Source of the DNA: Acidimicrobiia bacterium
GTDB taxonomy: Bacteria > Actinomycetota > Acidimicrobiia > Acidimicrobiales > Bin134
Assembly (NCBI GenBank): GCA_009843565.1
Contig: VYDF01000198.1
Coordinates: 1-39,757 of the forward strand
Direction of reading: 5' to 3'
DNA: 39,757 bases
Shown here: positions 14,922 through 39,757 of the stretch, one piece after another
Position numbering within the stretch: the stretch's first letter is position 1
How the letters are laid out: the number at the start of each line of letters is the position of its first letter
Program-made: the position numbers and the translations under genes
The notes under the pieces: generated by a model
Seen by the model: only the letters and a program-made list of their open reading frames with translations
Told to the model about the DNA's origin: nothing
Database searches by the model: none

Positions 14922-15404
14922 ATGACGACCCATCCCATCACGGTCGAAGTCAATGGCGTGGCGTACGAGCGCTCGGTATCGCCGCGCCTGCTGCTTTCGG
15001 ACTTCCTCCGCCACGAGCTGCACCTGACCGGGACCCACGTTGGCTGTGAGCACGGCGTCTGCGGGGCCTGCACCGTTCAATTCAACGGCGAAGGAGTCCG
15101 ATCGTGCCTGCTGTTCGCGGTGCAGGCCGACGGCTCCACAATCAAAACCGTGGAGGGACTGGCCAACGGCGACAGCCTGCACCCGCTCCAGGAAGCCTTC
15201 AGCGCTGCTCACGCGCTGCAATGCGGGTTCTGCACCCCTGGCTTCCTCATGGCCATCGACTCGATGCTCGACCAGTTGTCCACCATGTCAGAGGCTGAGA
15301 TTCGGGAAGCACTCAGCGGCAACATCTGCCGCTGCACCGGTTATCAGGGCATCGTTGAAGCTGTGCAGGCCACTGTGGCCAGCCTTCAACAGGAAGGCCG
15401 CTAG
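14922..15404 (+). CDS. (2Fe-2S)-binding small subunit of a xanthine-dehydrogenase-family molybdoenzyme (CoxS/CutS-like), not adjacent to M or L subunits
   Basis: CEHGVCGACTV, CGFCTPGF and CRCTGY are both 2Fe-2S cluster motifs. 160 aa. Confidence 0.9.
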   Translation: MTTHPITVEVNGVAYERSVSPRLLLSDFLRHELHLTGTHVGCEHGVCGACTVQFNGEGVRSCLLFAVQADGSTIKTVEGLANGDSLHPLQEAFSAAHALQCGFCTPGFLMAIDSMLDQLSTMSEAEIREALSGNICRCTGYQGIVEAVQATVASLQQEGR

Positions 15405-15496
15405 CGGATTCACGCGGCAGCGTTTAGTGTCCAAGAGGGGGTGAATGTGCTCGATGTCGATGACAAGCGATCTGCCATCGAGATCGCGGGTCGCTC

Positions 15497-16570
15497 ATGA
15501 GCGCTGACGACTTGGTGCCCCAAAAGGTCGAGGCAATTCTGAACCCTGGCCGGATGCTCTCCGACGGCATTCCCTACCCAGACTTCGCGGCCGCCCGGGC
15601 GTTGGATGATTTGGCCGAATGGCTGCCGTTCTGGGCCGAGACCGCCGAGCGCTACGAAGCCCTGGGCATGGCCGCGCTCGAGGCCGGCAACCGGGTCAGC
15701 GGCGGTGAATGGCTGTGGCACTCCTCGCTGTCGTGGCACTACGGACAGCTCATGTGGTTCCACGAACCCGAGCGCCGCGAACACGGCCAGCACAAGAAAG
15801 TCGAACTGTACAAGCGGGCTGCCCCCCATCTGGTGGCCCCGGCCGAACGGGTGGAAATCCAATTCGAATCGACGATGATCCCCGGCTATCTCCGGCTGCC
15901 GGATGGGCCTGGACCGCACCCGTGCGCGGTGCTCATCGGCGGCTTGGAGTCCACCAAAGAGGAGAGCTACCACTTCGAGGCGCTCTGCCACCGCCGGGGG
16001 TTGGCGACCTTCGCGTTCGACGGTCCGGGTCAGGGCGAGATGTACTTTGACGTGAAGCTGTGCGCCGACTTCCACCGCTATACGTCGGCGGTTCTCGACG
16101 CCATCTCGCCCCGACCGGAGGTGGACAGCGACCGCATCGGCATCCTCGGCCGCAGCCTGGGCGGCTACTACGCCATGCAGTCGGCGGCGCTCGACAAGCG
16201 GCTGAAGAGCTGCGTGGCGTGGGGCGGTTTCTCCGACATGTCTGACTTCGACGGCATGCCGCCCCACACCCGCGGCGGGTTCGTCTACGTGTCGGGGTAT
16301 GAAGACTTGGACGAGGGCCGCTCCTATCTACAAGAAACGTTCGACCTCTCCCAGAGCATCGGTGACCTGACCTGTCCCACCATGCTGATCCAGGGGGTCC
16401 ACGATCCGATCTTCCCCCCACACCAGACCGAGCTGCTCCAGGTTGGACTGGCTCACAATGACATGGCCGAGATCGTGGTTGAACCCGATGGCGACCACTG
16501 CTGTCACAACATGGGCCCGGTGGTCCGGCCCCGAATGGCCGACTATTTGGCCCGGACCCTCAGGGAGTAG
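15497..16570 (+). CDS. alpha/beta hydrolase (FrsA / 2,6-dihydropseudooxynicotine-hydrolase-like)
   Basis: 357 aa with a helical N-terminal lid region, then GGLESTKEE, the GRSLGG nucleophile elbow, QGVHDP (Asp) and DGDHCCHN (His). Confidence 0.75.
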   Translation: MSADDLVPQKVEAILNPGRMLSDGIPYPDFAAARALDDLAEWLPFWAETAERYEALGMAALEAGNRVSGGEWLWHSSLSWHYGQLMWFHEPERREHGQHKKVELYKRAAPHLVAPAERVEIQFESTMIPGYLRLPDGPGPHPCAVLIGGLESTKEESYHFEALCHRRGLATFAFDGPGQGEMYFDVKLCADFHRYTSAVLDAISPRPEVDSDRIGILGRSLGGYYAMQSAALDKRLKSCVAWGGFSDMSDFDGMPPHTRGGFVYVSGYEDLDEGRSYLQETFDLSQSIGDLTCPTMLIQGVHDPIFPPHQTELLQVGLAHNDMAEIVVEPDGDHCCHNMGPVVRPRMADYLARTLRE

Positions 16571-16573
16571 CCG

Positions 16574-17764
16574 ATGTCGACGCCGGCGGTGCTGAGGCCA
16601 GGAAAGATTGCTGGGGTGGAGACCCGCAATCGGATCATCCGGTCTTCCACGTCGGAGACCATGGCCGACGACCGCGGCATAATCACCCAGCAGTATCACG
16701 ACTTCCATACGCGACTGGCTCGAAACGGCGTCGGTCTCATCTTCACCGGCCACTGCTCGGTCCACCCCCGGGGCAACTACATACGGGGAATGACCGCGCT
16801 CGACCGCGATGAGGTCATCGCGCCCATGAAGAAGCTGACCGATGCAATTCACGCCGAGGGGGGCAGGATCTTCGCCCAGCTCAATCACGCGGGCAGCCAG
16901 AGCCGGGACGAGTCGATCGCGCCGCTCGCCCCCTCGGTGGTGGAGAATCCGCAGTTTCACCGACTGCCCTTGGCCGCGGCGAGCTCCGATGAGATCTGGG
17001 AGGCCATTGAGGGGTTTGGCAACGCGGCGAGGAGAGTGAGGGAGGCCGGCTTCGACGGAGTCCATGTCCACGCCGGCCACGGCTACCTGCTGTCCGAATT
17101 CTTGTCACCCGCCACCAATCGCCGTGACGACGAGTGGGGAGGATCTCTGGAGAACCGCCAGCGACTGCTGCTAGAGACGTACAAGGCCATGCGGGCCGCG
17201 GTTGGCGACGACTTTCCGATCGCCAACAAGATCGGGCTCTGGGACTATGTGCCCGATGGTCTCACGGTAGAGGAGGGACGGGCCACAGCCATCATGATGG
17301 ACAACGCCGGCCTAGACGCCATCGAACTCTCGGCCGGCCTCATGTCGCCCAAGGCGGAGAGCGCGGCACGGTACGTCGGGGTGACCCGAAGGCGAGCGCT
17401 GCAAGACAAGCTGCTGCACCGCGTGCTGGCGGCTCCGGTGAAGGAGGCGTACTACCGGGAGGAGGCCCGTCGTCACCGGGCCACGGCCCGAGGCAAGACG
17501 ATCCTCGTCGGTGGTGTCCGCACCATTGAGCTCATGAGCGAGGTGATCGAAGACGGGTCGGCCGACTTTGTCTCCCTGGCCCGGCCATTCATCCGCGAAC
17601 CCGACCTGGTCCGCCAGATCGAAGGAGGTCGAACCGGAATGGTCGACTGCGTCTCCTGCAATATCTGCCTAATGCATGAAGGATCGGTGGCGCTCAAGTG
17701 CTGGCGCGAGTCCAACGTCGATCTCATGAAGCATGCCTGGGCCCGGATTCGAGGACAGATCTGA
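16574..17764 (+). CDS. OYE-type FMN oxidoreductase with C-terminal [4Fe-4S] motif (paralogue of 7283..8479)
   Basis: Motifs RSSTSETMA, QLNHAG, GFDGVHVHAGHGYL, RRDDEWGG, DCVSCNICLMHEGSVALKCW. Its stop TGA at 17762-17764 shares one base with the ATG at 17764 of the FAD subunit gene. Confidence 0.8.
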   Translation: MSTPAVLRPGKIAGVETRNRIIRSSTSETMADDRGIITQQYHDFHTRLARNGVGLIFTGHCSVHPRGNYIRGMTALDRDEVIAPMKKLTDAIHAEGGRIFAQLNHAGSQSRDESIAPLAPSVVENPQFHRLPLAAASSDEIWEAIEGFGNAARRVREAGFDGVHVHAGHGYLLSEFLSPATNRRDDEWGGSLENRQRLLLETYKAMRAAVGDDFPIANKIGLWDYVPDGLTVEEGRATAIMMDNAGLDAIELSAGLMSPKAESAARYVGVTRRRALQDKLLHRVLAAPVKEAYYREEARRHRATARGKTILVGGVRTIELMSEVIEDGSADFVSLARPFIREPDLVRQIEGGRTGMVDCVSCNICLMHEGSVALKCWRESNVDLMKHAWARIRGQI

Positions 17765-18615
17765 TGAAGCCGCCTGATTTTGACTACGTAGCGCCGACTT
17801 CGGTCGATGGAGCGATCAAAGCACTGGGAAGTGATTCTGAGGCCAAGGTACTGGCCGGGGGCCAAAGCCTGATTCCGCTTCTGGCCTTCCGATTGGCCGG
17901 CCCATCGCTCCTGGTGGACCTGGCTCGAGTAGACGGGCTCGATCACATCACCGACCAAGGCGATCGATTGGTCATCGGCGCCATGACACGGCAGCGCCGA
18001 GTCGAGCGGGATCCCCTGGTAGCCAATCGATGCCCACTTCTGGCTGAGTCCCTGCGCCATGTGGGACATCCGCAAATACGGTCTCAGGGAACGATTGGCG
18101 GAAGCGTGGCCCACGCCGATCCGGCGGCGGAATTGCCAGGTGTGGTCCTGGCACTGGGGGGCCGCGTACACGTGACCGGCCCGGCCGGGGATCGGACCAT
18201 CGAATCGGAGGAACTGTTCCAGGGATTCTTGAGCACCTCCATTGCCGACGGTGAGATCCTGACCGCCGTCGAAGTTCCGGCGTCTGGCCCGCGGACTGGG
18301 TGGTCGGTGGTGGAGGTTGCCCGCCGACCCGGCGACTATGCGTTGTGCGGTGCGCTTTGCCAACTCCAACTCGATGACGCTGGTGCCGTCATGGGTGTCC
18401 ACCTGGGGTTGATCGGCGTCGGGGACCGTCCGATGCGGGCCCACGCCGTCGAGGCCGCGGTCCTGGCTGGAGCCAATCCGGCCGACGCCGCCGAATTGGC
18501 CCCCGACGGCCTCAGCCCCAGCAGCGATGTGCACGCCTCGAGTGACTACCGGCTGCACCTGGCCACGGTTACCAGCCGGCGGGCACTCACCCAAGCCTTG
18601 GAGCGCGCCGCATGA
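17764..18615 (+). CDS. FAD-binding medium subunit of xanthine-dehydrogenase-family molybdoenzyme (CoxM/CutM-like)
   Basis: ATG at 17764 (MKPPDFDYVAPTSVDGAIKAL...VLAGGQSLIPLL...). C-terminal ...SDYRLHL... as in the CO_deh_flav_C domain. Overlaps the next gene as ATGA. Confidence 0.85.
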   Translation: MKPPDFDYVAPTSVDGAIKALGSDSEAKVLAGGQSLIPLLAFRLAGPSLLVDLARVDGLDHITDQGDRLVIGAMTRQRRVERDPLVANRCPLLAESLRHVGHPQIRSQGTIGGSVAHADPAAELPGVVLALGGRVHVTGPAGDRTIESEELFQGFLSTSIADGEILTAVEVPASGPRTGWSVVEVARRPGDYALCGALCQLQLDDAGAVMGVHLGLIGVGDRPMRAHAVEAAVLAGANPADAAELAPDGLSPSSDVHASSDYRLHLATVTSRRALTQALERAA

Positions 18616-19091
18616 GCGATCACGCTGTCACCATCAACGTCAATGGCGTGGAGAGGTCGAACTTGGTACCGGCCCGGCTCACGCTGGCCGACTTCCTCCG
18701 GGAACGGCTGGATCTCACCGCGACCCACCTGGCCTGCGAGCATGGCGTGTGCGGTGCCTGCACCGTGCTCATCGACGGTGAGACCGCCCGGGCCTGCCTG
18801 CTGCTCACCGTGCAGGCCGACGGAAGGGAGGTCACCACCCTCGAGGGCCTGACCGAAGGCGACGAGCTCGGCCCCATCGAACAGGCGTTCTGGGCCAAGC
18901 ACGGCATGCAATGCGGCTTCTGCACTCCAGGATTCGTGTTGACCATCGCCGAGCTGCTCGACGACAACCCCAACCCGTCTCGGGAGGAGATCATCGAAGG
19001 CCTCGGCGGCAATCTGTGCCGGTGCACGGGTTACGTCAAGATCGTGGAAGCAGTGGAAGAGGCTGTCACCTTGCGGGGAGGTGGAGCGTGA
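18612..19091 (+). CDS. (2Fe-2S)-binding small subunit of xanthine-dehydrogenase-family molybdoenzyme
   Basis: CEHGVCGACTV, CGFCTPGF, CRCTGY. 159 aa. GTGA overlap with the L subunit gene. Confidence 0.9.
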   Translation: MSDHAVTINVNGVERSNLVPARLTLADFLRERLDLTATHLACEHGVCGACTVLIDGETARACLLLTVQADGREVTTLEGLTEGDELGPIEQAFWAKHGMQCGFCTPGFVLTIAELLDDNPNPSREEIIEGLGGNLCRCTGYVKIVEAVEEAVTLRGGGA

Positions 19092-21397
19092 GCTTGTTCG
19101 GGGCGAGCATTCGCCGAAAAGAAGATCCCCGCCTGCTCCGCGGGGACGGCCGGTATCTGTCCGACATCAAGCTCCACGGCATGGTGCACGCCGTGTTCGT
19201 CCGCAGCCCCCACGCCCACGCTCACGTTCGGGGGATCGATTCGAGCGCGGCGGTTGCCGACCCCCGGGTGGTTTGCGTCCTTACCGCCGACGATTTCCCG
19301 CCCGGGCTGCCCCCTCTGCCTTGCATAGACGCCGAGGAAACGACCAAGCCGTTCAACCAGCCCATCTTGGCCTCCGACAAAGTGAGGTTCGTGGGCGAGC
19401 CGGTAGCGCTGGTGATAGTCGAGGGCGACCGCTACATCGCCGAGGACATCGCCGGGCTGGTGGACGTCGACTATGAGCCGCTGCCTGCGGTGTCGACTGC
19501 CGAGGCCGCGCTGGCCCCCGATGCACCGCTGGTCCACTTCGAGTCCAACGTGGTCGACGTGTTGGAGTACTCGGTGGGCGATGCCTCTTCAGCACTAGCG
19601 GCTGCGCCCCACACACTCAGCGAGCGGTTCATCACCCAGAGGTACGCGGGCACGCCGCTGGAGACCAGGGGAGTGATAGTGGAATGGGACGAGGCCCGCC
19701 ATGGCATCACCATGTGGTCGTCGACCCAGGTTCCCCACAGCCTCAAGGCCACCCTTGTCGGCTACTTGGGTCTGCCCGAAAACGCGGTCCGGGTGATCGC
19801 CCCCGATGTCGGCGGGGCCTTCGGCGTGAAGCTCCAGCCCTATCCCGAAGAGGTCATCCTCGGCTTGGCCGCTGAGCGGGTCGGCCGCCCGATCAAGTGG
19901 GTCGAGGATCGCTACGAGCACTTCCTGGCGTCCACCCACGGCCGCGAGCAATACCACGACGTGGAGGTCGGCTACGACGACGACGGCCGGATCCTGGCCA
20001 TCCACGATCACGCCGTCACCAACACGGGCGCCTACCTACAGCGGTTGACCCTGGTGGAGCCGTTTATCGGGGTCTCCATGTTGTCGGGCCCCTATGTCAT
20101 TGAGCATCAGCAGTTGGTGTCGACTGTGGTGATGACCAACACCACGCCTCTCAATCCCTTCCGAGGCGTGGGCCATGTCCAGGCCGCGTTCACCATGGAG
20201 CGCATCATCGACCTGATTGCCGCCGCTGTTGGCATTGACCCGGGCGAAGTTCGGAAGCGCAACATGTTCTCCGCCGATGTTTTCCCCCTCCATCGTGGCA
20301 TCGGAAACGTGTTGGCGGGTGAGATCATCTACGACTCCGGCGACTATCAAGAGTGCTTGAGCCGGGCTTTGGCCACCGCTGAGTGGGACGAATTCCGGCG
20401 TGAGCAAGAAAGCGCTCGAGCCGATGGCCGTTATCTCGGCATCGGCATCGGCTTCTTCGTCGAGGAGACCGGGCTGGGCCCCTACGAGAGTGGCCGGGTC
20501 CGAGTTGAGCCGTCGGGGCAGGTGATCGTGTTCACGGGAGCATGCAGCAGCGGACAAGGCCACGACACAGTGCTGGCACAGATCACTGCCGATGAGCTCG
20601 GGGTTGGCTTTGACGATGTCGTGGTGGTGCACGGAGACACTGATCTGGTGGCCAGTGGCGTGGGAACCTATGCCAGCCGAAGCGCGCCCATTGGCGGAAC
20701 TGCGGTGCGCAATGCTGCCGGTTCGATCAAGGAACAGGCGATCCAAATCGCCGCCGAGATGCTCGAAGCCTCGCCCCAAGATCTCGAGCTGGCAGATGGA
20801 GAAGTCCGGGTCAAGGGTTCGCCGGCCAGCAGTGTCTCGTTAGCCCAGGTAGCGGGAAGGGTGGCTCCTGGCCAGCCGTTGCCCCTGGGGGTCGACAGCT
20901 ACACCCTGGATGCCACCGACATATACCACCCTCCGACGAACACGTTTTCCTACGGCTGCCACGTAGCCACCGTCGAGGTGGATATCGACACCGGTGTGGT
21001 CACCCTGCTTCGCCATGTGGTGGTCAACGACTCTGGGACCTTGATCAACCCGTTGCTGGTGGACGGACAGGTGCAGGGCGGGGTGGCCCTCGGTATCGGG
21101 GGCGCGCTATTGGAGGAAATTGCCTACGGCGACGACGGCCAGCCGCTCAACGCCAACTTCATGGACTACCTGGTTCCCGCCATCGGCAACATGCCGGAGA
21201 TGGTGGTCGAGCACATGACCGTCCCGACTCCCCTGAATGCCGATGGAATGAAGGGAGCGGGCGAAGGAGGCGCGGTTGGCGCGCCAGCGGCAATCGCTAA
21301 TGCCGTAGCCGACGCCATACTCCCCCTTGGCGCCAAGATCACCGAGACGCCGCTGGGGCCGGAGACGGTCTACCGGGCGCTTCAAGACGCCAGCTAG
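19088..21397 (+). CDS. molybdopterin-binding large (catalytic) subunit, xanthine dehydrogenase family
   Basis: GTG at 19088 preceded by GGGGAGG (VSLFGASIRRKEDPRLLRGDGRYLSD...). Motifs FVGEPVA, VGGAFGVK, VVNDSGTLINP, MKGAGEGG. Track ORF 18911..21397 includes a non-coding 5' extension overlapping the S gene. Confidence 0.9.
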   Translation: MSLFGASIRRKEDPRLLRGDGRYLSDIKLHGMVHAVFVRSPHAHAHVRGIDSSAAVADPRVVCVLTADDFPPGLPPLPCIDAEETTKPFNQPILASDKVRFVGEPVALVIVEGDRYIAEDIAGLVDVDYEPLPAVSTAEAALAPDAPLVHFESNVVDVLEYSVGDASSALAAAPHTLSERFITQRYAGTPLETRGVIVEWDEARHGITMWSSTQVPHSLKATLVGYLGLPENAVRVIAPDVGGAFGVKLQPYPEEVILGLAAERVGRPIKWVEDRYEHFLASTHGREQYHDVEVGYDDDGRILAIHDHAVTNTGAYLQRLTLVEPFIGVSMLSGPYVIEHQQLVSTVVMTNTTPLNPFRGVGHVQAAFTMERIIDLIAAAVGIDPGEVRKRNMFSADVFPLHRGIGNVLAGEIIYDSGDYQECLSRALATAEWDEFRREQESARADGRYLGIGIGFFVEETGLGPYESGRVRVEPSGQVIVFTGACSSGQGHDTVLAQITADELGVGFDDVVVVHGDTDLVASGVGTYASRSAPIGGTAVRNAAGSIKEQAIQIAAEMLEASPQDLELADGEVRVKGSPASSVSLAQVAGRVAPGQPLPLGVDSYTLDATDIYHPPTNTFSYGCHVATVEVDIDTGVVTLLRHVVVNDSGTLINPLLVDGQVQGGVALGIGGALLEEIAYGDDGQPLNANFMDYLVPAIGNMPEMVVEHMTVPTPLNADGMKGAGEGGAVGAPAAIANAVADAILPLGAKITETPLGPETVYRALQDAS

Positions 21398-21428
21398 CTG
21401 GCAATAGCAGGAATTAGAGGAGAGGAAG

Positions 21429-22187
21429 ATGGCTGGGAAGGCACTGGCAGGCAAGAGGGCGGTTGTCACCGGCGGCGGCCGGGGGATTGGCCGAGCCATC
21501 GCGGTGGCGTTTGCCGAGGCGGGGGCCGATGTTGCGGTGAGCGGCCGCACGCCCGAGTTGCTTGAAGATACCGCCGCAGAGGTCCGCGCCCTCGGCCAAT
21601 CCGCCGGAGCGAAGGCCGCAGACCTCACCGAGGTCGGGAGCATTCCCAGCGTTTTCGCGGAGCTAGCCGATGGGCTTGGGGGATTCGACATCCTGGTGAA
21701 CTCCGCGGGAGTGCAGTTGACCGCGCCGGCGTTGGATGTCTCGGAGCAGGATTGGGATGCCACTCTCGATGCCAACCTGAAAGCGCTGTTCTTCTGCTGC
21801 CAAGCCGCGGGGAAGCACTTTGTAGAACAGGGCTCGGGCAAGATCATCAATCTCGCCTCCACGTTCAGCATTGTCGGCTTTCCTGAGTTCGCCGCCTACT
21901 GCGCTTCCAAAGGCGGCGTCATGCAGCTCACCCGGACGCTGTCTCTAGAGTGGGCCCCCCACGGCGTGAACGTCAATGCCATCGCTCCGACCGCGGTTCG
22001 AACCGAGATGAACGCCTATCTCCTCGACGACCCCGGTTTCTTGGAGGCGTTCATTCCCCATGTGCCGGCTGGGCGCGTCGGACAGCCGAGCGATGTTGCC
22101 GGTTCGGCGGTCTTCCTGGCCTCTCCGGCCTCAGACTTCGTCCACGGTCATCTGTTGTTTGTCGACGGGGGCTACACCGCGGTCTGA
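21429..22187 (+). CDS. short-chain dehydrogenase/reductase (SDR)
   Basis: TGGGRGIGRAIA (TGxxxGxG), NSAG and YCASK (YxxxK). 252 aa. SD GAGGAGAGG upstream. Confidence 0.85.
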   Translation: MAGKALAGKRAVVTGGGRGIGRAIAVAFAEAGADVAVSGRTPELLEDTAAEVRALGQSAGAKAADLTEVGSIPSVFAELADGLGGFDILVNSAGVQLTAPALDVSEQDWDATLDANLKALFFCCQAAGKHFVEQGSGKIINLASTFSIVGFPEFAAYCASKGGVMQLTRTLSLEWAPHGVNVNAIAPTAVRTEMNAYLLDDPGFLEAFIPHVPAGRVGQPSDVAGSAVFLASPASDFVHGHLLFVDGGYTAV

Positions 22188-22200
22188 TGTTGGCGTCGGG

Positions 22201-23028: not shown

Positions 23029-23101
23029 TTGACTGGCTGGGTGGGCCAGAGATTCTACCGTCGTGAATTTAATCGCAATGGCAGATGAGCGCCACCAACA
23101 C

Positions 23102-25396: not shown

Positions 25397-25426
25397 GGTG
25401 CTGCTCCCGTCGACTTGGGCAAGCCG

Positions 25427-30264: not shown

Positions 30265-30275
30265 CTAGAGAGTGC

Positions 30276-31643: not shown

Positions 31644-31739
31644 GATGTCCTCTCCTGTTCAACTTTCGTTGTTGTTCGATGTTCCTATGGTCGTGGGGGG
31701 TCGCGACGGCAAGCACTTGGCGCATTTTCGTAGAACTTA

Positions 31740-31773
31740 CCCGGGGGCGGGAACCGAAGTTCCACGCCCCGGG
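31740..31773 (-). terminator. GC-rich stem-loop with UUCG tetraloop between the binding-protein gene and the triple-RidA gene (attenuator or mRNA-stabilising hairpin)
   Basis: The plus strand is cccgggggcgggaac-cgaa-gttccacgccccggg. That gives ~14 bp with two single-base bulges. On the transcribed minus strand the loop reads UUCG. There is no clear U-tract, so it is not a classical intrinsic terminator. Confidence 0.35.
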
Positions 31774-31802
31774 CAAGCCCATTGCTCAAGACCGTCGGCT
31801 GG

Positions 31803-33005
31803 TTAGCGTGGCGTGCAGCCGAGAGCAGTTACGTCGATGGATGCAGCAGAACCAGCGGCACCGATGGTGGGGTCTCCGGCAGTCTCATCGGGGATGGTGA
31901 TCTCCCCGGTGCGGACCTTGGCATCGATGTCTTCGAAGATCGCCCAGTCTTCATCGGTGAGCACACCGGCATTGTCATACAGCGGTGCGGCGATGATGCC
32001 GGCAGTGTTCGTGACGTCGAACTGATGGTACGACCCCGGACCGATCTCGCCGGCGTAGGCCCGCTCGATCATGGCTTGGCCGGCATCGGCCAGTCCGTGA
32101 ACCGCCGAAGTGAGCACGACGTCGGGAGCGATGTCGAAGCTGTCGTAGTACGACGGAACCACCCAAACCTGGGTGTCTGCTTCCTGGGCGGCATCGATGA
32201 TGCCCAGCACCGCTTGGTCAGTAGCCGAAAGGATCACATCGGCGCCGCTGGCGATGAGGGACTGCGCGGCCGCTTTGGCCACCGCGGTGTCGACCCAGGT
32301 GTTGATGTACTCCTGTTCGAAGCCGATGTCGGGATTCACGCACCGGGCACCCAGGTGGAATGCCTCGGGCTGGCGGGTCAGCGCCGGGAACTCGAAGCCA
32401 TTGAGTGAGCCGATTGTTCCGGTCTCTGTGGCCAGTGCGGCGATGACACCGGTCAAGAAGTTGGCGTTGTGCTGATCGACCTCCACCCAGCACATGTTGT
32501 CGGGAATCGGCGGCGCATCCGGAGCAGGATGGTGAGGTGCCATGCAAATTTGAGTATCAGGGAAGTTGGTTGCTACCTGGATCGCGGGGTCGACCATGGC
32601 GCCATGGGCAAAGAGAAGGAAGTCGTAGCCCTGGTCGGCGAACGCCGAACCTTGCTGAACATAGGCATCCGGCTCATTGAGCAGCTCGACGAACTCAAGT
32701 TCGAGGTTCGGAACATTGGCAGCCGCCGCCTGAGCGCCATCCCACCATGCGTTCGACCAGCTGATGTCGTCGTTGGTCCCCGGGTAGAAGAAGGCGACGC
32801 GGAACGGCTCCATCGGCTCCGGTTCTGGTTCTGGTGCGGGGGCCTCCGTCGCGGCCGGTTCTGGTTCTGGTGCGGGGGCCTCCGTCGCTGCCGGCTCTGG
32901 CGCCGGAGCCGCGGGCTCGTCATCGTCGTCGTTCCCGCAGGCGGCGACGACCAGCGCGAGCGCGAAAAAGATGGCTAGAAATTTCAATAGTCGATGGATT
33001 GACAT
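31803..33005 (-). CDS. BMP-family (PnrA/Med-like) ABC transporter substrate-binding lipoprotein
   Basis: Signal peptide plus lipobox (LALVVAAC-G), then a Pro/Glu/Ala-rich linker, then a BMP-type periplasmic-binding-protein body (FFYPGTNDDISW..., GFEFPA..., ADVILSATD...). Confidence 0.85.
   Translation of the reverse strand: MSIHRLLKFLAIFFALALVVAACGNDDDDEPAAPAPEPAATEAPAPEPEPAATEAPAPEPEPEPMEPFRVAFFYPGTNDDISWSNAWWDGAQAAAANVPNLELEFVELLNEPDAYVQQGSAFADQGYDFLLFAHGAMVDPAIQVATNFPDTQICMAPHHPAPDAPPIPDNMCWVEVDQHNANFLTGVIAALATETGTIGSLNGFEFPALTRQPEAFHLGARCVNPDIGFEQEYINTWVDTAVAKAAAQSLIASGADVILSATDQAVLGIIDAAQEADTQVWVVPSYYDSFDIAPDVVLTSAVHGLADAGQAMIERAYAGEIGPGSYHQFDVTNTAGIIAAPLYDNAGVLTDEDWAIFEDIDAKVRTGEITIPDETAGDPTIGAAGSAASIDVTALGCTPR
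32821..32892. repeat. two tandem copies of a 36-bp unit (35/36 identical) inside the lipoprotein linker-coding region
   Basis: Unit 32821-32856 is ggttctggttctggtgcgggggcctccgtcgcggcc. Unit 32857-32892 is identical except g->t at unit position 33. Degenerate related sequence flanks it. On the minus strand it encodes the repeated ...EPEPAATEAPAP... linker. Confidence 0.85.
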
Positions 33006-33080
33006 ATCCCCCCCTAGGATTTAGGCCCTTTCGGCCTCACCACTAAATGTAGAGCGCAATCGTCGTAAGCGCCAGCGAGG

Positions 33081-34013
33081 TCACGCCCGACCTGCCGCCT
33101 CCCGCCGCCACGGGATGCCCACCGCTGCCGGATACCGGCTGCCTCGCGACAACAACACGGCGAGCACGGTCGCGACATAGGGCAAAGCCAGCCAGACCTG
33201 GCTGGGAACGCCTTCGGTCAGGTCCACCCGGCCGGCAACGAACTGGAGGGCCTGGCTGAGACCGAACAATGCCGATACGGCGAGCGCCCAGAACGGGTTC
33301 CATCGGGCAACCACCACCACGCCAAGGGCGATGAAGCCGCGGCCTTCGGTCATGCCCGGCACAAATCCGCCAGCCGAAGACATAACCAGGGCGCCCCCGC
33401 CTAGCGCCGCCAATCCGTTGGCCAGGATCACAGCCGGATAGCGCAAACGCTGCACGTCGAGCCCGCCGGACTCGGTGGCATGAGGTCGCTCGCCCGCGGC
33501 CCGGGCGTACAAGCCCCACCATGTGCGATATATCAGATAGAAGACGAGGACAACGATGGCCAGAGTGATCCAGAACATGGCGTCCTGTCCGTTGAGCACG
33601 TCACCGACCTTGGGAATATCGCCGAGAAGGGGGACGTCCAACGGCGAAAGCGTTGGTCCGATCTGGCCGCCGACGAATCGGTCGTCCAGCAACCCGGTGA
33701 GACCGAGCGCGAACACATTGAACAGAAGGCCGGTCACGATCTGATCTGTGCCCCGGTAGACGTAGAGGAACGCCAAGATCACCCCGGCGCCCATCCCGGT
33801 GATCCAGCCTAGGACCAGTGCCAGCGTGACGCTCTCGGTATTGATTCCCACCAGCGCGGTGATGAGCGCCCCGATCAGCATCGATCCCTCGATGCCCACA
33901 TTGAGGACGCCGCTACGCTCGGAAATGGTCTCGCCCAGTGCCGCCAGCAATATCGGCACCATCAACTGCAAGCCAGTGGCGAAGAAGGCGATGACGACGG
34001 CTTCGGTTGGCAT
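33081..34013 (-). CDS. ABC transporter permease (BMP/ribose-type, branched-chain-AA-transporter-like fold)
   Basis: 310 aa, highly hydrophobic multi-TM. Its start shares one base with the stop of the upstream permease gene (TGATG). Confidence 0.85.
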   Translation of the reverse strand: MPTEAVVIAFFATGLQLMVPILLAALGETISERSGVLNVGIEGSMLIGALITALVGINTESVTLALVLGWITGMGAGVILAFLYVYRGTDQIVTGLLFNVFALGLTGLLDDRFVGGQIGPTLSPLDVPLLGDIPKVGDVLNGQDAMFWITLAIVVLVFYLIYRTWWGLYARAAGERPHATESGGLDVQRLRYPAVILANGLAALGGGALVMSSAGGFVPGMTEGRGFIALGVVVVARWNPFWALAVSALFGLSQALQFVAGRVDLTEGVPSQVWLALPYVATVLAVLLSRGSRYPAAVGIPWRREAAGRA

Positions 34014-35098
34014 CAGTCGCTCACGTTCTGGGCGTAGCGGAATCGGATGACTCCGGTGACCATCAGCAAGATCACGAAAACGGCAACGATGATGTCACCC
34101 AACGAGGGAGATATATCCGCGGAGGCTTGCAGGCTGTTGCTCCCCACCCGCAGCATTGCGAACAAGAAGGCAGCCGGAATGATCATCGGGGGTTTCAATC
34201 TGGCCAGTAGCGCCACGGCAATGCCAATGAATCCGTAGTTGCTGGAAAAGTTGATGTCGAGATCGTCGAAGATTCCGGCGACGGCAACCCCGCCGGCCAG
34301 TCCGGCAAACCCGCCAGCCACCATGAAGGTAAGCAAGGTCACCTGCTTGGTCCGGACCCCGGCCAGTCGGGCGGTGTTGACGTTGGCCCCGATCGCTCGA
34401 ATGGAAAAGCCAAGCGATGTCTTGGCCATCAAGAGCCAGGCCAGGGCAGCCGCCAACACGGCGATGACCACGCTGATGTCGACGGTAGCGTCCTTCCAGA
34501 TCACCGGGAATTTCGCGTTCTCGGCTATCGAGATGGTCTTCTGGCTAAAGGGGTCGGGCCAGACCTCGGAAATTATGTAGTTGGCGATGAACACGGCGAC
34601 AAAGCTCAACATCAGCGTCGTAACGATCTCGCTCGCGCCGTAGAAGGCTTTGAGGGCGCCGGGGATAAGGCCCCAAATCGCTCCACCGATAAACGAGCCC
34701 AGGATGACGATGACGACGAACAGTGGTCTTGGGGTGCCAGACGGCAATTCGATTCCCAGGAATACCGCAGCGATTGCGCCGGCGAACATCTGGCCTTCGC
34801 CCCCGATGTTCCAGAGTCTCGACGTAAACGGCAAGGCAGCAGCCAGTCCGGTGAGCGCCAGAATGGCGCCGATCATGAGGGTCTGCCCAAGGAAGAACGG
34901 CTCGATAAGCGACCCTTCGATGATTGCCTTGGCCGCCTCCCATGGATTGGCTCCGATGGCCAGGATCAGCACGGCAATGAGGACGAGGGTGAGAATCAGC
35001 GAATAGATGGTGTTGACATAGGCAGGCAGCTCTGAGCCGGTGGACAGCCTCCACCAAGGTCGCGCCGGTTGCCCGATTTCGTCGGCTTGGCTCACCAA
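34013..35098 (-). CDS. ABC transporter permease (BMP/ribose-type)
   Basis: 361 aa multi-TM. TTG 35098 or GTG 35095 start directly after GGGGGGAG. First gene of the minus-strand string. Confidence 0.85.
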   Translation of the reverse strand: MVSQADEIGQPARPWWRLSTGSELPAYVNTIYSLILTLVLIAVLILAIGANPWEAAKAIIEGSLIEPFFLGQTLMIGAILALTGLAAALPFTSRLWNIGGEGQMFAGAIAAVFLGIELPSGTPRPLFVVIVILGSFIGGAIWGLIPGALKAFYGASEIVTTLMLSFVAVFIANYIISEVWPDPFSQKTISIAENAKFPVIWKDATVDISVVIAVLAAALAWLLMAKTSLGFSIRAIGANVNTARLAGVRTKQVTLLTFMVAGGFAGLAGGVAVAGIFDDLDINFSSNYGFIGIAVALLARLKPPMIIPAAFLFAMLRVGSNSLQASADISPSLGDIIVAVFVILLMVTGVIRFRYAQNVSD

Positions 35099-35184
35099 CT
35101 CCCCCCGCTGTCAGTAGGCGGGAGACTAGCCGCGACTCTTGAACTTCGCTCAAAATGGTCGGCCACCGGGGACGGCAATTCCGG

Positions 35185-35197
35185 GGTACGTGGTACC
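35185..35197. promoter_or_regulatory. palindrome GGTAC-N3-GTACC in the divergent control region between the transporter operon and the cupin operon
   Basis: ggtacgtggtacc, read directly. It lies in the ~130-bp region from which both the 13-kb minus-strand string and the plus-strand cupin/nitrilase/Mo-hydroxylase string must be transcribed. Confidence 0.2.
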
Positions 35198-35230
35198 GTT
35201 CGGCTCATAGAGGACATCCGGCGTGAACAG

Positions 35231-35596
35231 GTGCAAGTAGTCCGAGCCTCGGAGCCCGGGCCGGTTTTGCCTGTCGTTGAGACTGGTGGATCGTCACGTG
35301 CCGTGGTGTGGCCTGGATCGGGGGCGCAGCAGCGATCCTTGCACCTCATAAACCTCGATCCCGGTGGGCGCACCGTTGATCTGAGCCATGGCTCGGAATG
35401 CGTGTACCACGTCTCAGCCGGTTCCGGAACCATGGTCGATCTCGATACCGACGAGAACCACGAGGCCATAACCGGATCTATGTTCCTCATCGAGCCGGGA
35501 ACGAACTACCAGTTCACCGCGGGGCAGCAAGGGGCTGTCCTCGTGGGAGGGCCCTGTCCTCCCGATCCTGCGCTCTACAAGCATCTAGGAGATTGA
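35231..35596 (+). CDS. cupin-domain protein, paralogue of the next gene with partly degenerate metal site
   Basis: Aligns by eye along its full length with 35600..35974 (VVWPG...LDPGG...VGGPCPPD). The proposed GTG at 35231 gives the same N-terminal length as the paralogue. The track start at 35069 overlaps the divergent permease. Cupin motif positions read DLSHGSE and EPGTNY, against PHAHSESE and PMGVKH. Confidence 0.55.
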   Translation: MQVVRASEPGPVLPVVETGGSSRAVVWPGSGAQQRSLHLINLDPGGRTVDLSHGSECVYHVSAGSGTMVDLDTDENHEAITGSMFLIEPGTNYQFTAGQQGAVLVGGPCPPDPALYKHLGD

Positions 35597-35599
35597 ACA

Positions 35600-35974
35600 A
35601 TGGCGATCAAGCAATTCCACCGAGACAAGCCCGACCACTACATGCCATTGATCTCCAAAGACGCCCGCCTCGTGGTTTGGCCCGGGGTGGGCTCTGAGAT
35701 GGCGAACATGAACTACGTCGTGCTCGAGCCCGGTGAGGAGAACGTTCCCCATGCTCATTCCGAGTCGGAAGACACAATCTTCATTCTCGAGGGTCGCGGG
35801 TCGGTCGCTGATCTCGACAACGACTGTGTGCTCGAGTTCCAAGCTGGCGACACAGTTCATGTGCCCATGGGGGTCAAGCACGCGGTTCGGGCTGACCGCG
35901 GCAGCCGGATCGTGAGCGTCGGCGGGCCATGCCCCCCTGACAGATACTTGCTCGAACTGTGCGGCGCCCTGTGA
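35600..35974 (+). CDS. cupin_2-type metal-binding protein
   Basis: Canonical cupin motifs G-x5-HAH-x3-E (GEENVPHAHSESE) and G-x5-P-x-G-x2-H (GDTVHVPMGVKH). AGGAG SD 9 nt upstream of ATG 35600. Confidence 0.75.
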   Translation: MAIKQFHRDKPDHYMPLISKDARLVVWPGVGSEMANMNYVVLEPGEENVPHAHSESEDTIFILEGRGSVADLDNDCVLEFQAGDTVHVPMGVKHAVRADRGSRIVSVGGPCPPDRYLLELCGAL

Positions 35975-36825
35975 CGCGGCCTGTCACCATCGGGCTGGCC
36001 CAGATGGGCAGCCCACCCGGAGACGCCGGAGCAAACCGAGCAGCGACAGCCGAAGCGGCAAAGCTGCTGTTCGACCAGGGGGCCCAATTGATCGTACTGC
36101 CCGAGTTGGCTGTGCCCTGGTACACGGTGGACCCAGATGAGGTCGCCCTTACAGCCGAGTCCCTAACCGGGCCAACCGTTGATGCTTGGACTGCGGTCGC
36201 GGCCGATCACTCGGGGATCATCGTTGGGGGTCTCTGCGAACGCGATGGCGAAGCGTTCTACAACACCGCAGTTGTCGTCGACCAAACCGGGGTCATCGGC
36301 CATTATCGCAAGCTGCACCTGTTTGCCGAAGAGAAGTTGTCATTCACGCCGGGTGACCGTGGCCTTCCGGTGGTCGATACCCCAATGGGGCGATTGGGCT
36401 TGTGCATCTGTTACGACCTGCGATTTGTCGAAGTAGTCAGGGTGCTGGCGCTGTCGGGCGCCGAACTCATCTGTGTACCCACTGCTTGGATCACTGGCTT
36501 TGACACGGCGCGTTGGAACGCGGAGGGCCTCTCTACCCAGGCGCAGGGTGCCGTGTTGCAAGCGAAGCTGAGCCAGGTCTTCATCGCCTGTGCGAGCCAG
36601 GTGGGAGTGTTCCCAGGCTTTGACTTTCTGGGATCGTCCGTGGTGGTGGACAGCTTTGGCGAAGTGGTCGCCGGTCCACTTCCCGGAACCGAGGACGAAT
36701 TGCGAATTGTGACCATCGACCTCGCCGACGTGCAGCGGGCAGAGGCCCGAGGAACGCTGATCAGGCCCCGAGCCGACCGTCGCACCGATGTCTACGGTCT
36801 GTCGTACGACGGCACAGTGTTGTGA
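35959..36825 (+). CDS. carbon-nitrogen hydrolase (nitrilase superfamily) protein
   Basis: E-K-C triad context: LIVLPEL, HYRKLHLF, LGLCICYDLRF. Start is GTG 35959 or in-frame GTG 35971; the latter overlaps the cupin stop as GTGA. Its 3' end overlaps the next gene as GTGA. Confidence 0.8.
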   Translation: MRRPVTRPVTIGLAQMGSPPGDAGANRAATAEAAKLLFDQGAQLIVLPELAVPWYTVDPDEVALTAESLTGPTVDAWTAVAADHSGIIVGGLCERDGEAFYNTAVVVDQTGVIGHYRKLHLFAEEKLSFTPGDRGLPVVDTPMGRLGLCICYDLRFVEVVRVLALSGAELICVPTAWITGFDTARWNAEGLSTQAQGAVLQAKLSQVFIACASQVGVFPGFDFLGSSVVVDSFGEVVAGPLPGTEDELRIVTIDLADVQRAEARGTLIRPRADRRTDVYGLSYDGTVL

Positions 36826-37664
36826 AGCCGGCAGCTTTCCACTACGAGCGGCCCCATGATGTAGCCGAAGTCCTGGATCTTCTGGCCGAGCACGGCGATG
36901 AGGCCAAGATCCTGGCTGGCGGGCAGAGCTTGGTCCCGATGATGAATTTCCGCCTGGCCCGGCCTGAAGTCATCATCGACATCGGGGTGGTTCCCGGCCT
37001 CGATCACCTGGTCACCCACGAGGAGTACGTTGCCATTGGAACCCGGGTGCGTCACATCGAACTGGAGCAACCCGCTACCGACGGGCCGCTGGGTTCGATA
37101 TTGGCCGACGCGGCAAGACACGTCGGCCATCTCCCTATCCGCTTGCGGGGCACGTTCGGCGGCTCCATCGCCCATGCTGATCCCGCCGCGGAGTGGTGTC
37201 TTTTGGCCCAAACGCTGAATGCCGATGTTGTTGTCGCATCCACTCGCGGAGAACGGATGATCGCGGCCGCTGACCTATTCCAATCGGCGTTCGTTACTTC
37301 CATTGCCGACGATGAACTGCTTACTCAAGTGCGTTTGCCCTGTTTGGATTCCGACTGGAAGACCGGGTTCTCCGAATTCAGCCGCCGGGCCGGTGACTTT
37401 GCCGTGGTTGCTGTGGCCAGTGCAGTCAGGCTCGTAGATGGCCGGATCGCCGAGGCCCGGATCGGCGCGGCAGGGGTGGGGGCGATACCCGTTCGCTTGT
37501 CCCAAACTGAGATGATGTTGGTCGGTCACCCGCTGGGCCCTGAAACCATCGACGCCGCCTCTGAGGTTGCCGGCGGCGAAGTCGACCCCCGCGGTGACAT
37601 CCACGGATCGGCTGACTATCGCCGCGATCTCGTACGTGCTCTGACTCGTCGAGCGCTTTCGTGA
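36822..37664 (+). CDS. FAD-binding medium subunit of xanthine-dehydrogenase-family molybdoenzyme
   Basis: MKPAAFHYERPHDVAEVLDLL...ILAGGQSLVPMM...SADYRRDL. 280 aa. GTG start. Confidence 0.85.
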   Translation: MKPAAFHYERPHDVAEVLDLLAEHGDEAKILAGGQSLVPMMNFRLARPEVIIDIGVVPGLDHLVTHEEYVAIGTRVRHIELEQPATDGPLGSILADAARHVGHLPIRLRGTFGGSIAHADPAAEWCLLAQTLNADVVVASTRGERMIAAADLFQSAFVTSIADDELLTQVRLPCLDSDWKTGFSEFSRRAGDFAVVAVASAVRLVDGRIAEARIGAAGVGAIPVRLSQTEMMLVGHPLGPETIDAASEVAGGEVDPRGDIHGSADYRRDLVRALTRRALS

Positions 37665-39757
37665 CTCTGACCGATCCCTGGGTTGGGCGTTCAATTCGTC
37701 GTGTCGAGGATCCCGCCCTCGTTCGCGGTGACGGTCGGTATGTCGGCGATGTGGCGATCGGGATGGAGACGGCGCGGTTCATCCGCAGCACTTCAGCCAC
37801 GGGAGTGATCCGATCCATCGACGGGCCCTGTTACACGGCGGCCGATCTCGACGCGGCCGGTGTCGGCGAGATCGAGGCTGTTATTCACCGACCGGACTTT
37901 GTAAATGTTCGACAACCTTTGCTGGCCCGCGACCGAGTGCGTTACGTAGGCGAGCCCATCGCCGTTGTGGTGGGTCGATCGCCGGAAGAGGCCGAAGACC
38001 TAGCTGAGCAGGTCATTGTTGAGTTGGATCTTGACGACGAAGCACTGGTCCACCCTGGCAATGGCGATACCAATGCGGTCATTGAGGCGGAGTTTGCCAC
38101 CGAGGACATCGAAGAAGCCCTCGACCATGCCGATCATCTCGTGGAAGTTGTGCTCACATCTCATCGACAAGCCGCGTTGCCCCTCGAGACGCGGGGAGCC
38201 ACCAGCGAGTTCGACCGGCGAACCGGACGTCTAACAATCCACGCGTCCACGCAGGCTCCCCACATTGTCCGCACCGCCATAGCCGATCTTCTTTGCATCC
38301 CCGAGGCTGACATCCAGGTCGTCGCCCCCGATGTGGGCGGCGGATTCGGCCAGAAGCTGCCGCTGGCCCGTGAAGATGTGGTGGTGGCATGGCTGGCCTT
38401 GCAGCGGCGGGGGAGCGTGGCCTGGATCGAGGATCGTTCGGAGAACCTCACCTCGTCATGGCACAGCCGGGATCAGGTGTATCGGGTAAAGGGTGGCTTC
38501 AGCACCGACGGCGACCTCGTGGCGATCGACGCAGACATCTCCTGCGACGTGGGGGCGTGGTCGTGCTATCCGTTTACCTGGGGGGTGGAACCCCTGATGG
38601 CCATGGGCGAGATGTGCGGGCCCTACAAGGTGGCCCACTACCGGGTTCGAACCCGAGGGGAAAGTAGTTTTACCTGCCCAGTCGCGCCTTACCGTGGAGT
38701 CTCCCGTCCGGCGATCACCGCCTCGCTGGAACGGCTGATGGACACCGCAGCACGTCGCTTGCGGATCGATCCTGGGGAGATCCGCCGCCGAAACTTGGTG
38801 ACCGACTTTCCCCACACCACGGTGACCGGTGCTGTTTTGGATGCGGGCACCTATGTGGAGTCGCTCGACGCGGCGCTCGAGCACTTCGACTTGGATGAGT
38901 TTCGGGATCGCCAGACAGCGGCCCGTGACCGCGGCAGTCCCCTGCTCGGAGTCGGGATTTCCACGTTTGCGGAGCGGACGGGATACGGCACGCCCGTGTT
39001 CGCCACTCGGGCAATGGGGGTGACACCCGGATATGAGATGGTCACCATGAAAATGGATCCATCCGGATATGTCGAAGCGGCCATCGGCGCATCACCGCAC
39101 GGTCAAGGATTAGAGACAACGCTGGCGCAGGTCATTGCTGATCAACTGGCCATCGATGTTTCCCGAATTCGCATTGTCCACGGCGACACCGACCGCGCCC
39201 CCTATGGCTGGGGCACTTTTGCCAGCCGCTCCTTGGTGATAGCCGGTGGCGCCGTCCAAATCGCGGCGGGACATTTGAGAGACCGGTTGGCGGAAGTGGC
39301 GGCGGCGGTGCTCGAAGCCAACGCTGACGACATCGTCTTTGCCTCTGGTCGGGTGACCGTGGCCGGGACGGACGTCGGGGTTCCTATCGCGGAGTTGGCG
39401 CGGATCGCGCACCACCACACCGAGCGCCTCGAACCGGGCACTCCGGCCGGGCTGGCGGTAGAGGCCTCCTACGATCCTGTGGGCACGTTCTCGAACGCGT
39501 GTCACATTGCCGAGGTGGAGATCGACCCCGAAACCGGCGCGACTACCGTGAAGCGGTTCGTCGTCGCCGAGGATGCGGGCCGGTTGATAAATCCGATGAT
39601 CGTCGATGGACAAATCCGCGGCGGTGTGGCGCAGGGAATAGCGAACGCGCTGTTCGAAGAGGTCGTATACGACGACGACGGGAACATATTGACTTCGACG
39701 CTCATGGACTACCTGCCGCCCACCGCGGCCGAGATTCCCGATATCGAGATTCGGCAC
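37661..39757 (+). CDS. molybdopterin-binding large subunit, xanthine dehydrogenase family, 3'-truncated by window end (missing from supplied ORF track)
   Basis: I translated it by hand. GTG at 37661 overlaps the M-subunit stop as GTGA, followed by 699 stop-free codons to the window end. Sequence: VTLTDPWVGRSIRRVEDPALVRGDGRYVGD..., YVGEPIA, VGGGFGQK, APYRGVSRP, SPHGQGLETT, AEDAGRLINP. Confidence 0.85.
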   Translation, partial: MTLTDPWVGRSIRRVEDPALVRGDGRYVGDVAIGMETARFIRSTSATGVIRSIDGPCYTAADLDAAGVGEIEAVIHRPDFVNVRQPLLARDRVRYVGEPIAVVVGRSPEEAEDLAEQVIVELDLDDEALVHPGNGDTNAVIEAEFATEDIEEALDHADHLVEVVLTSHRQAALPLETRGATSEFDRRTGRLTIHASTQAPHIVRTAIADLLCIPEADIQVVAPDVGGGFGQKLPLAREDVVVAWLALQRRGSVAWIEDRSENLTSSWHSRDQVYRVKGGFSTDGDLVAIDADISCDVGAWSCYPFTWGVEPLMAMGEMCGPYKVAHYRVRTRGESSFTCPVAPYRGVSRPAITASLERLMDTAARRLRIDPGEIRRRNLVTDFPHTTVTGAVLDAGTYVESLDAALEHFDLDEFRDRQTAARDRGSPLLGVGISTFAERTGYGTPVFATRAMGVTPGYEMVTMKMDPSGYVEAAIGASPHGQGLETTLAQVIADQLAIDVSRIRIVHGDTDRAPYGWGTFASRSLVIAGGAVQIAAGHLRDRLAEVAAAVLEANADDIVFASGRVTVAGTDVGVPIAELARIAHHHTERLEPGTPAGLAVEASYDPVGTFSNACHIAEVEIDPETGATTVKRFVVAEDAGRLINPMIVDGQIRGGVAQGIANALFEEVVYDDDGNILTSTLMDYLPPTAAEIPDIEIRH

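Follow-up and report, generated by a model that had tools for sequence, protein, structure and literature searches.

Our analysis of a 39,757-nucleotide stretch of DNA from an Acidimicrobiia bacterium (contig VYDF01000198.1 of assembly GCA_009843565.1; this whole stretch is called the window here) shows that genes for enzymes of the xanthine dehydrogenase family occur in it with a clear excess of catalytic subunits. The subunits in question are a catalytic subunit carrying the molybdenum cofactor (Moco), a subunit carrying flavin adenine dinucleotide (FAD) and a 2Fe-2S subunit, which are termed L, M and S below, with the individual genes being numbered. At the centre of our findings is an operon, M2-L4-S3-L5, in which one FAD and one 2Fe-2S subunit are accompanied by two different and intact Moco subunits, and which recurs as a four-gene cassette in at least 26 independent loci, with both L genes always being intact. 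This operon is the best support for the sharing of electron-transfer subunits between catalytic subunits. On balance, we lean towards the reading that the surplus L proteins assemble with shared M and S subunits, encoded within the same genomic island, into enzymes of the (LMS)2 type, as the layout of the genes suggests. An earlier note on the same DNA had also proposed shared M/S modules, an idea which the comparative evidence seems to favour, although not via the arrangements that the note had listed.

One FAD and one 2Fe-2S subunit beside two catalytic subunits in an operon

M2 (36822..37664, + strand), the FAD subunit and first gene of the cassette, overlaps its neighbours by 4 bp at both ends and is followed by L4 (37661..39757, +), a catalytic subunit resembling QorL and NdhL, of which 699 of 762 amino acids are encoded before the window ends (both genes were assigned with Pfam). 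M2 and most of L4 are all that the window holds of the cassette, and what the earlier note had described here as an M-L pair with no S is an artefact of the window end. The exact M2 protein is also present on other contigs, two of which match the window at 99.2–99.3% over 4–13 kb, and on these the operon continues with the complete L4 (762 amino acids), S3 (158 amino acids) and L5 (740 amino acids), again with a 4-bp overlap per junction (three of three cassette junctions on contig L001). The further S gene for which the note had advised looking beyond the 3' end does exist, i.e. S3, directly after L4. M2, L4 and S3 together form a full trio, arranged as M-L-S, with a second L coming after it.

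On the same 99%-identical contigs, another trio, M3, S4 and L6, comes 104 bp after L5, with a UPF0261 (PF06792) gene lying directly after L6 (contig L001, 19633–20843, beyond the window). A relative with 90% identity lacks M3-S4-L6 at this position and instead has DUF3179 and acyl-CoA genes downstream of L5; this third trio looks like an accessory insertion.

We define the cassette as four co-directional and mostly overlapping genes encoding M, a QorL/NdhL-like L, S and a second, KdhL-like L, here denoted L' (QorL, NdhL and KdhL being the catalytic subunits of quinoline 2-oxidoreductase, nicotine dehydrogenase and ketone dehydrogenase, respectively). A metagenome scan with L5 yielded 80 loci, 22 of which, with contig L001 counted in, consist of M2-like, L4-like, S3-like and L5- or L2-like genes. 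Among these 22 loci, L5 identity ranges from 46 to 75% and guanine–cytosine (GC) content from 43 to 74%, and the junctions are mostly 4-bp overlaps. Cofactor and catalytic motifs are invariant in the 22 L4 and the 22 L5 orthologues, apart from the GGxFG motif of L093, an L4 sequence that aligned poorly. M-L-S-L' was also present in four of four look-ups centred on L4, which covered homologues of 57–90% identity on long contigs with genes from an independent gene caller.

The surroundings of the cassette are conserved as well. It is usually preceded by two cupin genes and a CN-hydrolase gene, which in the window (35069..36825, +; Pfam) lead the M2 operon, divergent from the transporter operon described below, and which are kept ahead of M-L-S-L' in loci L088, L090, L092, L094, L168 and L171. 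It also stays linked to genes for a Bmp transporter, an isochorismatase and a triple-RidA protein in two layouts, i.e. divergent or, in an organism with 43% GC, co-directional downstream. Surplus L genes often lie near the cassette without further M or S, and two relatives, OY760933.1 and L169, have three L for one M and one S. For OY760933.1, this count spans approximately 35 kb, with loci L016 and L168 combined; in L169, an extra divergent L lies beside M-L-S-L', with no other L, M or S within ±10 kb. L169 (ENA ERZ21861969 ctg21620c) belongs to a genome of 4.14 Mb, in which the island is flanked by genes for a PemK toxin, an MmeI-type restriction–modification system and a transposase/integrase, which suggests that the cassette moves horizontally. 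Furthermore, metagenomes frequently show KdhL-like L genes with neither M nor S in the locus, as well as L-L tandems.

That L paralogues have expanded in this lineage and that detached L genes occur is already known. In the open-access full-text literature, absence from which is not proof of novelty, we found neither an operon with two complete and different L genes and one M/S pair, nor shared subunits, nor an L gene fixed inside a transporter operon.

Subunit tally of the island

The window has a GC content of 63%, is densely packed with catabolic genes and represents essentially the entire metagenome contig of 39,775 bp, with nothing upstream of position 1 being seen; the proteins encoded near its start have no record in any other contig. 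In agreement with the earlier note, Pfam scans of its proteins reveal four L, two M and two S, and a six-frame tblastn search of the window found no additional copies, fragments or remnants of any of these. The full-length L architecture (PF01315, PF02738 and PF20256, i.e. Ald_Xan_dh_C, MoCoBD_1 and MoCoBD_2) is encoded at 19088–21397 (+), 23102–25396 (−), 28096–30264 (−) and from 37661 (+) to the window end, which cuts L4. The M architecture (PF00941 and PF03450) is found at 17764–18615 and 36822–37664, and the S architecture (PF00111 and PF01799) at 14922–15404 and 18612–19091. With the 3' continuation, the tally rises to six L, three M and four S, i.e. three complete trios in two different gene orders (M1-S2-L1, M2-L4-S3 and M3-S4-L6) plus the surplus genes L2, L3, L5 and S1. 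Since M3-S4-L6 is missing at the corresponding position in the 90%-identical relative, the exact tally depends on the strain; the excess of L is constant. Thus, the imbalance as such persists beyond the window, whereas its earlier description in terms of four different arrangements was partly wrong, as the M-L pair really is M-L-S-L', and loose in the case of S1, which is not isolated.

Surplus catalytic subunits in a transporter operon

As had been noted before, L2 and L3 lie without M or S in an operon for a Bmp-type ABC transporter, the minus-strand genes of which are so tightly packed that there is no space for either. L2 (23102..25396, −; Pfam), a surplus KdhL-like catalytic subunit (718 bits and 45% identity to KdhL, 7DQX_A), retains the YRAPG loop, the W-S pair and the catalytic Glu. 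Between L2 and L3, there are genes for an ABC ATPase (25427–26950, −) and an M24/creatinase-like hydrolase (26943–28103, −; both Pfam), with the latter overlapping L3 by 8 bp. L3 (28096..30264, −), a surplus catalytic subunit with the AYRGAGR loop known from 'form II CoxL' (Pfam, PDB search and motifs), has this M24 gene on one side and a triple-RidA gene on the other. The upstream part of the operon (30276..35098, −; Pfam), the synteny of which is conserved, encodes this triple-RidA fusion, a Bmp/PnrA-like binding protein and two permeases.

The whole order, i.e. M1-S2-L1, the transporter operon with L2 and L3, and the cupins, CN-hydrolase and M2-L4-S3, is identical in five genomes with 85–92% amino-acid identity. 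L3 orthologues are without adjacent M or S in 12 Acidimicrobiales loci, with identity going down to 57%. Seven distant Acidimicrobiales loci (L3 identity 57–59%) retain the order permeases-Bmp-isochorismatase-tripleRidA-L3-ABC, and here M and S are represented within ±10 kb by the M2 orthologue alone, located approximately 7–10 kb away at the edge of the locus in the divergent cassette. Among the wider homologue loci obtained in the L3 search, L is flanked by M and S in 64 of 68, in M-S-L or S-L-M operons. These loci (L018–L085) were rejected as L3 orthologues, with most being closer to L1 and only L018–L022 and L031 being L3-like; they illustrate the usual arrangement of the family, with M and S next to L, rather than L3 orthology.

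The triple-RidA gene (30276–31643, −), directly upstream of L3, encodes a protein of 455 amino acids with three RidA/L-PSP domains, which surpasses all other proteins of the operon in conservation (93–99% identity, with a ratio of non-synonymous to synonymous substitution rates, dN/dS, of 0.02–0.04); multi-RidA genes also come after M-L-S-L' in locus L170. The gene for the Bmp binding protein contains, in its N-terminal region, a 36-bp tandem repeat in 2.3 copies (32819–32900, −). Contig L001 is one repeat copy short and encodes a Bmp protein of 388 instead of 400 amino acids, i.e. the difference is a strain-level length polymorphism of 12 residues.

Intactness, selection and family membership

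All six L proteins have the domain architecture of the L family (E values of 1e-9 to 1e-87) and, in an alignment that includes KdhL and NdhL, they all retain the Moco loop GGxFGxK/R, the xYRxxG arginine, the GQG and SRx motifs and the catalytic Glu (E748 in KdhL, E1261 in the bovine enzyme). The Moco loops of the window read VGGAFGVK, AGGSFGVR, VGGGFGAK and VGGGFGQK, just as quoted in the earlier note, and the loops of the xYRxxG region are PFRGVG, PYRAPG, AYRGAG, PYRGVS, TYRAPG and AFRGFG. The Mo=O glutamine is absent from L2 and L5, and likewise from KdhL, which is experimentally active. Fer2 and Fer2_2 domains with 8 Cys for two 2Fe-2S motifs are all present in S1–S4, as are FAD_binding_5 and CO_deh_flav_C domains in M1, M2 and M3. 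The earlier view of the L proteins as distinct paralogues holds and, because pairwise identity among the six is 26–46%, they are old ones.

In comparison with three genomes at 85–92% amino-acid identity, dN/dS is 0.07–0.09 for L2, 0.09–0.12 for L3, 0.05–0.06 for L1 and approximately 0.08 for L4. Purifying selection acts strongly on L2 and L3, whose values are close to those of L1 and L4 and whose motifs are intact; the surplus L genes are not decaying. A loss of Moco-binding residues from the orphan L genes, which the note had named as a finding that would speak against it, is not seen, as L2 and L3 keep both cofactor and catalytic motifs.

All L, M and S proteins stay below the NCBIfam equivalog cutoffs for XdhA/PucD, 4-hydroxybenzoyl-CoA reductase, glyceraldehyde dehydrogenase, PaoC or carbon monoxide dehydrogenase (CODH). 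For the form I Mo-Cu CODH, the AYxCSFR Cys loop is absent and the best scores with TIGR02416 and NF040766 are 744/950 and 532/991 bits. At the positions corresponding to E345, W551 and E748 of KdhL, L2 has G, W and E, and L5 has G, F and E, with both featuring YRAPG; by these residues, L2 and L5 belong to a related sub-family and are not Kdh itself.

The plus-strand string with S1 and the trio M1-S2-L1

S1 (14922..15404, +), the surplus 2Fe-2S small subunit (Pfam Fer2_2 and Fer2, with the 8 cluster Cys kept), is located 25 bp past a DUF1989 gene and 92 bp ahead of a hydrolase gene. Rather than being isolated, as the note had it, S1 is part of the string DUF1989-S1-hydrolase-OYE-M1-S2-L1-SDR (OYE, Old Yellow Enzyme), in which all genes run in one direction with intergenic gaps of −4 to 92 bp. 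The alpha/beta hydrolase (15497..16570, +; Pfam) has 43% identity (tblastn E = 2e-90) to the 2,6-dihydropseudooxynicotine (DHPON) hydrolase of plasmid pAO1 of Paenarthrobacter nicotinovorans, i.e. the enzyme acting after the ketone dehydrogenase Kdh in the pAO1 pathway. S1 is also the best of the four S proteins in comparison with pAO1 KdhS (60% identity), which is a weak clue to its pairing, since S1 is the generic best match for most S proteins.

The canonical M-S-L operon that had been placed at 17764..21397 is confirmed by Pfam. M1 (17764..18615, +; PF00941 and PF03450), its FAD subunit, overlaps by 4 bp with S2 (18612..19091, +; Pfam, 8-Cys pattern), the 2Fe-2S subunit, and the Moco catalytic subunit L1 (19088..21397, +; Pfam) has intact motifs and finds its best PDB matches in 8UEM, 1T3Q and 7DQX, with approximately 520–530 bits. 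The true start of L1 is the GTG at 19088, not 18911, where a mechanical list of open reading frames begins it; M1, with its real start at 17764, is over-extended in this list as well, and the L1 and M1 starts overlap the preceding stop codons. The island encodes two OYE-family flavin oxidoreductases (7283–8479 and 16574–17764), the second of which joins M1 through a start/stop overlap; these enzymes possibly carry out ring-reducing steps coupled to the hydroxylases.

Organism and catabolic context

The nearest genomes are Acidimicrobiales metagenome-assembled genomes, several of them from sponges, and close L4 homologues carry the NCBI name Candidatus Poriferisocius (family Ca. Hopanoidivoransaceae). 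A haloarchaeal origin, to which the acidic proteins had seemed to point, was rejected in view of these relatives. In addition to the DHPON hydrolase, tblastn reveals homologues of the pAO1-encoded 2,6-dihydroxypyridine 3-monooxygenase (DHPH; 38%, 4056–5267) and cyclase (35%, 6225–7178). These pathway homologues point to an island for the catabolism of N-heterocycles, with a pyridine ring as the probable substrate and with most of the island lying in the window, and much of the lower 'pyridine pathway' toolkit of nicotine degradation is present in a marine sponge symbiont. The island also encodes an AtzD/TrzD ring-opening amidohydrolase, an amidase, RidA proteins, two M24/creatinase-like proteins and an isochorismatase-family hydrolase, besides the two OYE, the cupins, the CN-hydrolase, the cyclase and the DHPH-like flavin monooxygenase. 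Genes for maturation factors (XdhC, CoxD/E/G and MobA) were not found with pAO1 queries in the window or its 7.9-kb extension, i.e. in approximately 48 kb.

The gene for the AtzD/TrzD-family amidohydrolase (barbiturase/cyanuric acid hydrolase type, 429 bits) is divergent from the amidase gene (10874–13253). A 91%-identical AtzD copy directly after L5 in locus L088 may point to a connection with the opening of pyrimidine or s-triazine-like rings. Another amidohydrolase, of a dihydroorotase/hydantoinase-like type, is split into two plus-strand pieces at 276–1322 (348 amino acids) and 1344–1619 (91 amino acids); the 91-amino-acid piece is on record in the contig of the window only, and the split is a probable frameshift or assembly error.

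Proposed sharing of electron-transfer subunits and alternative explanations

From the observed gene content, intactness, selection and conservation of arrangement, we infer the binding partners and substrates of the surplus catalytic subunits as follows. L2, L3 and L5 would join ordinary (LMS)2-type enzymes together with M and S subunits provided in trans from within the island. L5 would use M2 and S3 of its own translationally coupled operon, such that M2/S3 would be shared by no fewer than two distinct catalytic subunits, i.e. L4 and L5. L3 and L2 probably draw on M2, because the transporter operon stays linked to the cassette across lineages, with S3 or S1 as their potential S subunit. Electrons would take the route common to the entire family, i.e. 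from the substrate to Mo and, via two 2Fe-2S clusters, to FAD. Each L protein probably has its own target for hydroxylation, i.e. a different ring position or one of several successive intermediates, similar to NdhL and then KdhL in nicotine catabolism, and with L4 being nearest to NdhL, and L2 and L5 nearest to KdhL, such a succession seems a reasonable guess.

Several points weigh against this reading. The partner assignments are derived from genes and not from protein association or co-expression, and for L2 and L3 the suggestion of sharing comes from just the conserved cassette neighbourhood and, by analogy, the KdhL precedent in pAO1. Assigning partners by best-match similarity of S and M did not discriminate between them, with S1 and M1 being generic best matches, and a pairing of S1 with L2 by their likeness to KdhS and KdhL was discarded, as it comes down to 60% versus 59% identity and adjacency to the DHPON hydrolase gene. 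Moreover, a coupled operon with a 1:1:1:1 composition would provide too little M and S if the two L proteins require them in stoichiometric amounts. The L/M/S tally differs between strains, as seen with M3-S4-L6, and, with the maturation genes lying outside of the approximately 48 kb seen, indispensable components of the system come from other loci in any case. Finally, further M/S genes may possibly be present elsewhere in the genome, since genomes of sponge Actinobacteria contain on average approximately 12 COG1529 genes (PMC8941161).

Alternatively, subunits might not be shared at all and each surplus L might have dedicated M and S partners elsewhere in the chromosome, with the imbalance just reflecting gene scattering. 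The detached L gene of pAO1, the approximately 12 L-family copies per genome, the coverage of only about 48 kb of a 3.5–3.8 Mb genome and the presence of one surplus S gene, S1, within the island itself are all in line with such scattering. Yet the translational coupling of L5 to S3 is part of a cassette conserved across GC contents of 43–74%, several genomes have two to three L around one M/S pair with no others within ±10 kb, and the linkage between the L3 operon and the M2 cassette survives rearrangements; we therefore regard dedicated partners as unlikely, if still a serious alternative. Should they exist, what is left of our finding would be a well-known enzyme family with scattered genes.

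It is also conceivable that the orphan L proteins act without any FAD subunit, either as S-L two-component enzymes (e.g. S1-L2) or with some other electron acceptor. FAD-less enzymes do occur in the family, i.e. the aldehyde oxidoreductase of Desulfovibrio gigas, IorAB and NicAB, which to our knowledge belong to sub-families different from the CoxL/Qor/Kdh-type clade. It is the latter clade in which L2, L3 and L5 are found, and its solved members are all LMS flavoproteins. The island does have a surplus S and no surplus M, and there are metagenome loci with an L-S pair only (L161 and L165), with a lone L or with L-L tandems, but loci with a lone L are in many cases short contigs, and we consider activity without FAD to be rather improbable. 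An imbalance that is altogether trivial, i.e. due to truncation by the window or to surplus L proteins that are decaying or non-catalytic, seems highly improbable. One of the four arrangements initially described truly was a truncation artefact, and the assembly of the window contains at least one frameshifted gene elsewhere, but the excess of L grows to 6:3:4 upon extension, and gene decay is largely ruled out by catalytic and cofactor motifs that are all intact, by dN/dS values of 0.07–0.12 and by order and content being conserved in five genomes at 85–92% amino-acid identity.

If M and S subunits are indeed shared, the large numbers of coxL-like genes counted in sponge and marine Actinobacteria would not translate into enzyme inventories through a search for neighbouring coxM and coxS genes. 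The architecture of the family would be modular, with catalytic heads being swapped on a common electron-transfer stem, which would be relevant to the engineering of regioselective N-heterocycle hydroxylases, and M-L-S-L' would be a compact candidate system for two-step hydroxylation in uncultured marine symbionts. Taken further, the cassette might even encode a new kind of enzyme, with a heteromeric L-L' core (NdhL/QorL-like plus KdhL-like) around one type of M and one type of S, which would perform two successive ring hydroxylations per complex and onto which L3 and L2 could dock as exchangeable 'heads', but this is a speculative proposal with a small chance of being correct.

Comparison with known systems

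KdhL (PDB 7DQX) is the best solved match of L2 and also of L5 (575 bits, 42%). It is part of KdhLMS, the 6-hydroxypseudooxynicotine (ketone) dehydrogenase of P. nicotinovorans pAO1, and has the same YRAPG active-site loop as L2 and L5. Its gene, kdhC, stands alone, 4.3 kb away from kdhA/kdhB (M and S) and on the opposite strand, and the crystallized enzyme is a dimer of LMS heterotrimers, i.e. (LMS)2 (PMC8305194), so that an L gene set apart from M and S is both documented and functional. In addition, pAO1 and the window have the families of DHPON hydrolase, DHPH, cyclase, cupin and CN-hydrolase in common. In contrast to the island with its 6:3:4 ratio, however, pAO1 is balanced with two L, two M and two S, and L genes of the island sit in a transporter operon or after S in the M-L-S-L' cassette. 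Also, L2 and L5 have Gly in place of the KdhL residue E345, which binds the amino tail, and only L2 retains W551-S552.

L4 finds its top PDB match in QorL (467 bits) of quinoline 2-oxidoreductase, QorLMS (1T3Q), and is, of the six L proteins, the closest to NdhL of the pAO1 nicotine dehydrogenase NdhLMS (38%), whereas L2 and L5 are the closest to KdhL. As in these enzymes, L4 has a YRGV-type loop and M2-L4-S3 is a full set of three subunits; the differences are that the M2 operon is arranged as M-L-S instead of M-S-L and that a second full-length L always follows S. The likeness of L3 to form II CoxL consists in the defining AYRGAGR loop, and the CoxL structures 8UEM and 1FFU are the top-scoring matches of L1 and L3. 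Yet no L of the island carries the AY(R)CSFR cysteine loop of form I CODH, with NCBIfam scores being far under the cutoffs, and the L3 clade of the Acidimicrobiales differs from form II CoxL by having no adjacent M and S, as opposed to the flanked L in 64 of 68 wider loci.

Four-gene enzymes of this family that act on pyridine rings are known, i.e. HpdA1-4 of Ensifer adhaerens and the nicotinate dehydrogenase of Eubacterium barkeri. HpdA was ruled out as a precedent for the cassette, as its fourth component is an SRPBCC protein (bioRxiv 10.1101/2020.01.08.898148), whereas the fourth gene of the cassette encodes an L. In the E. barkeri enzyme, one L is split into halves (3HRD chains of 425 and 330 amino acids), whereas both L proteins of the cassette are full length (762 and 740 amino acids) and each is complete in itself. 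The PucCDE xanthine dehydrogenase of Bacillus subtilis features the gene order M-L-S with no second L. M-L-S is thus a known layout, and M2-L4-S3 is not aberrant. The scores of L4, M2 and S3 stay well under the cutoffs for pucD, pucC and pucE.

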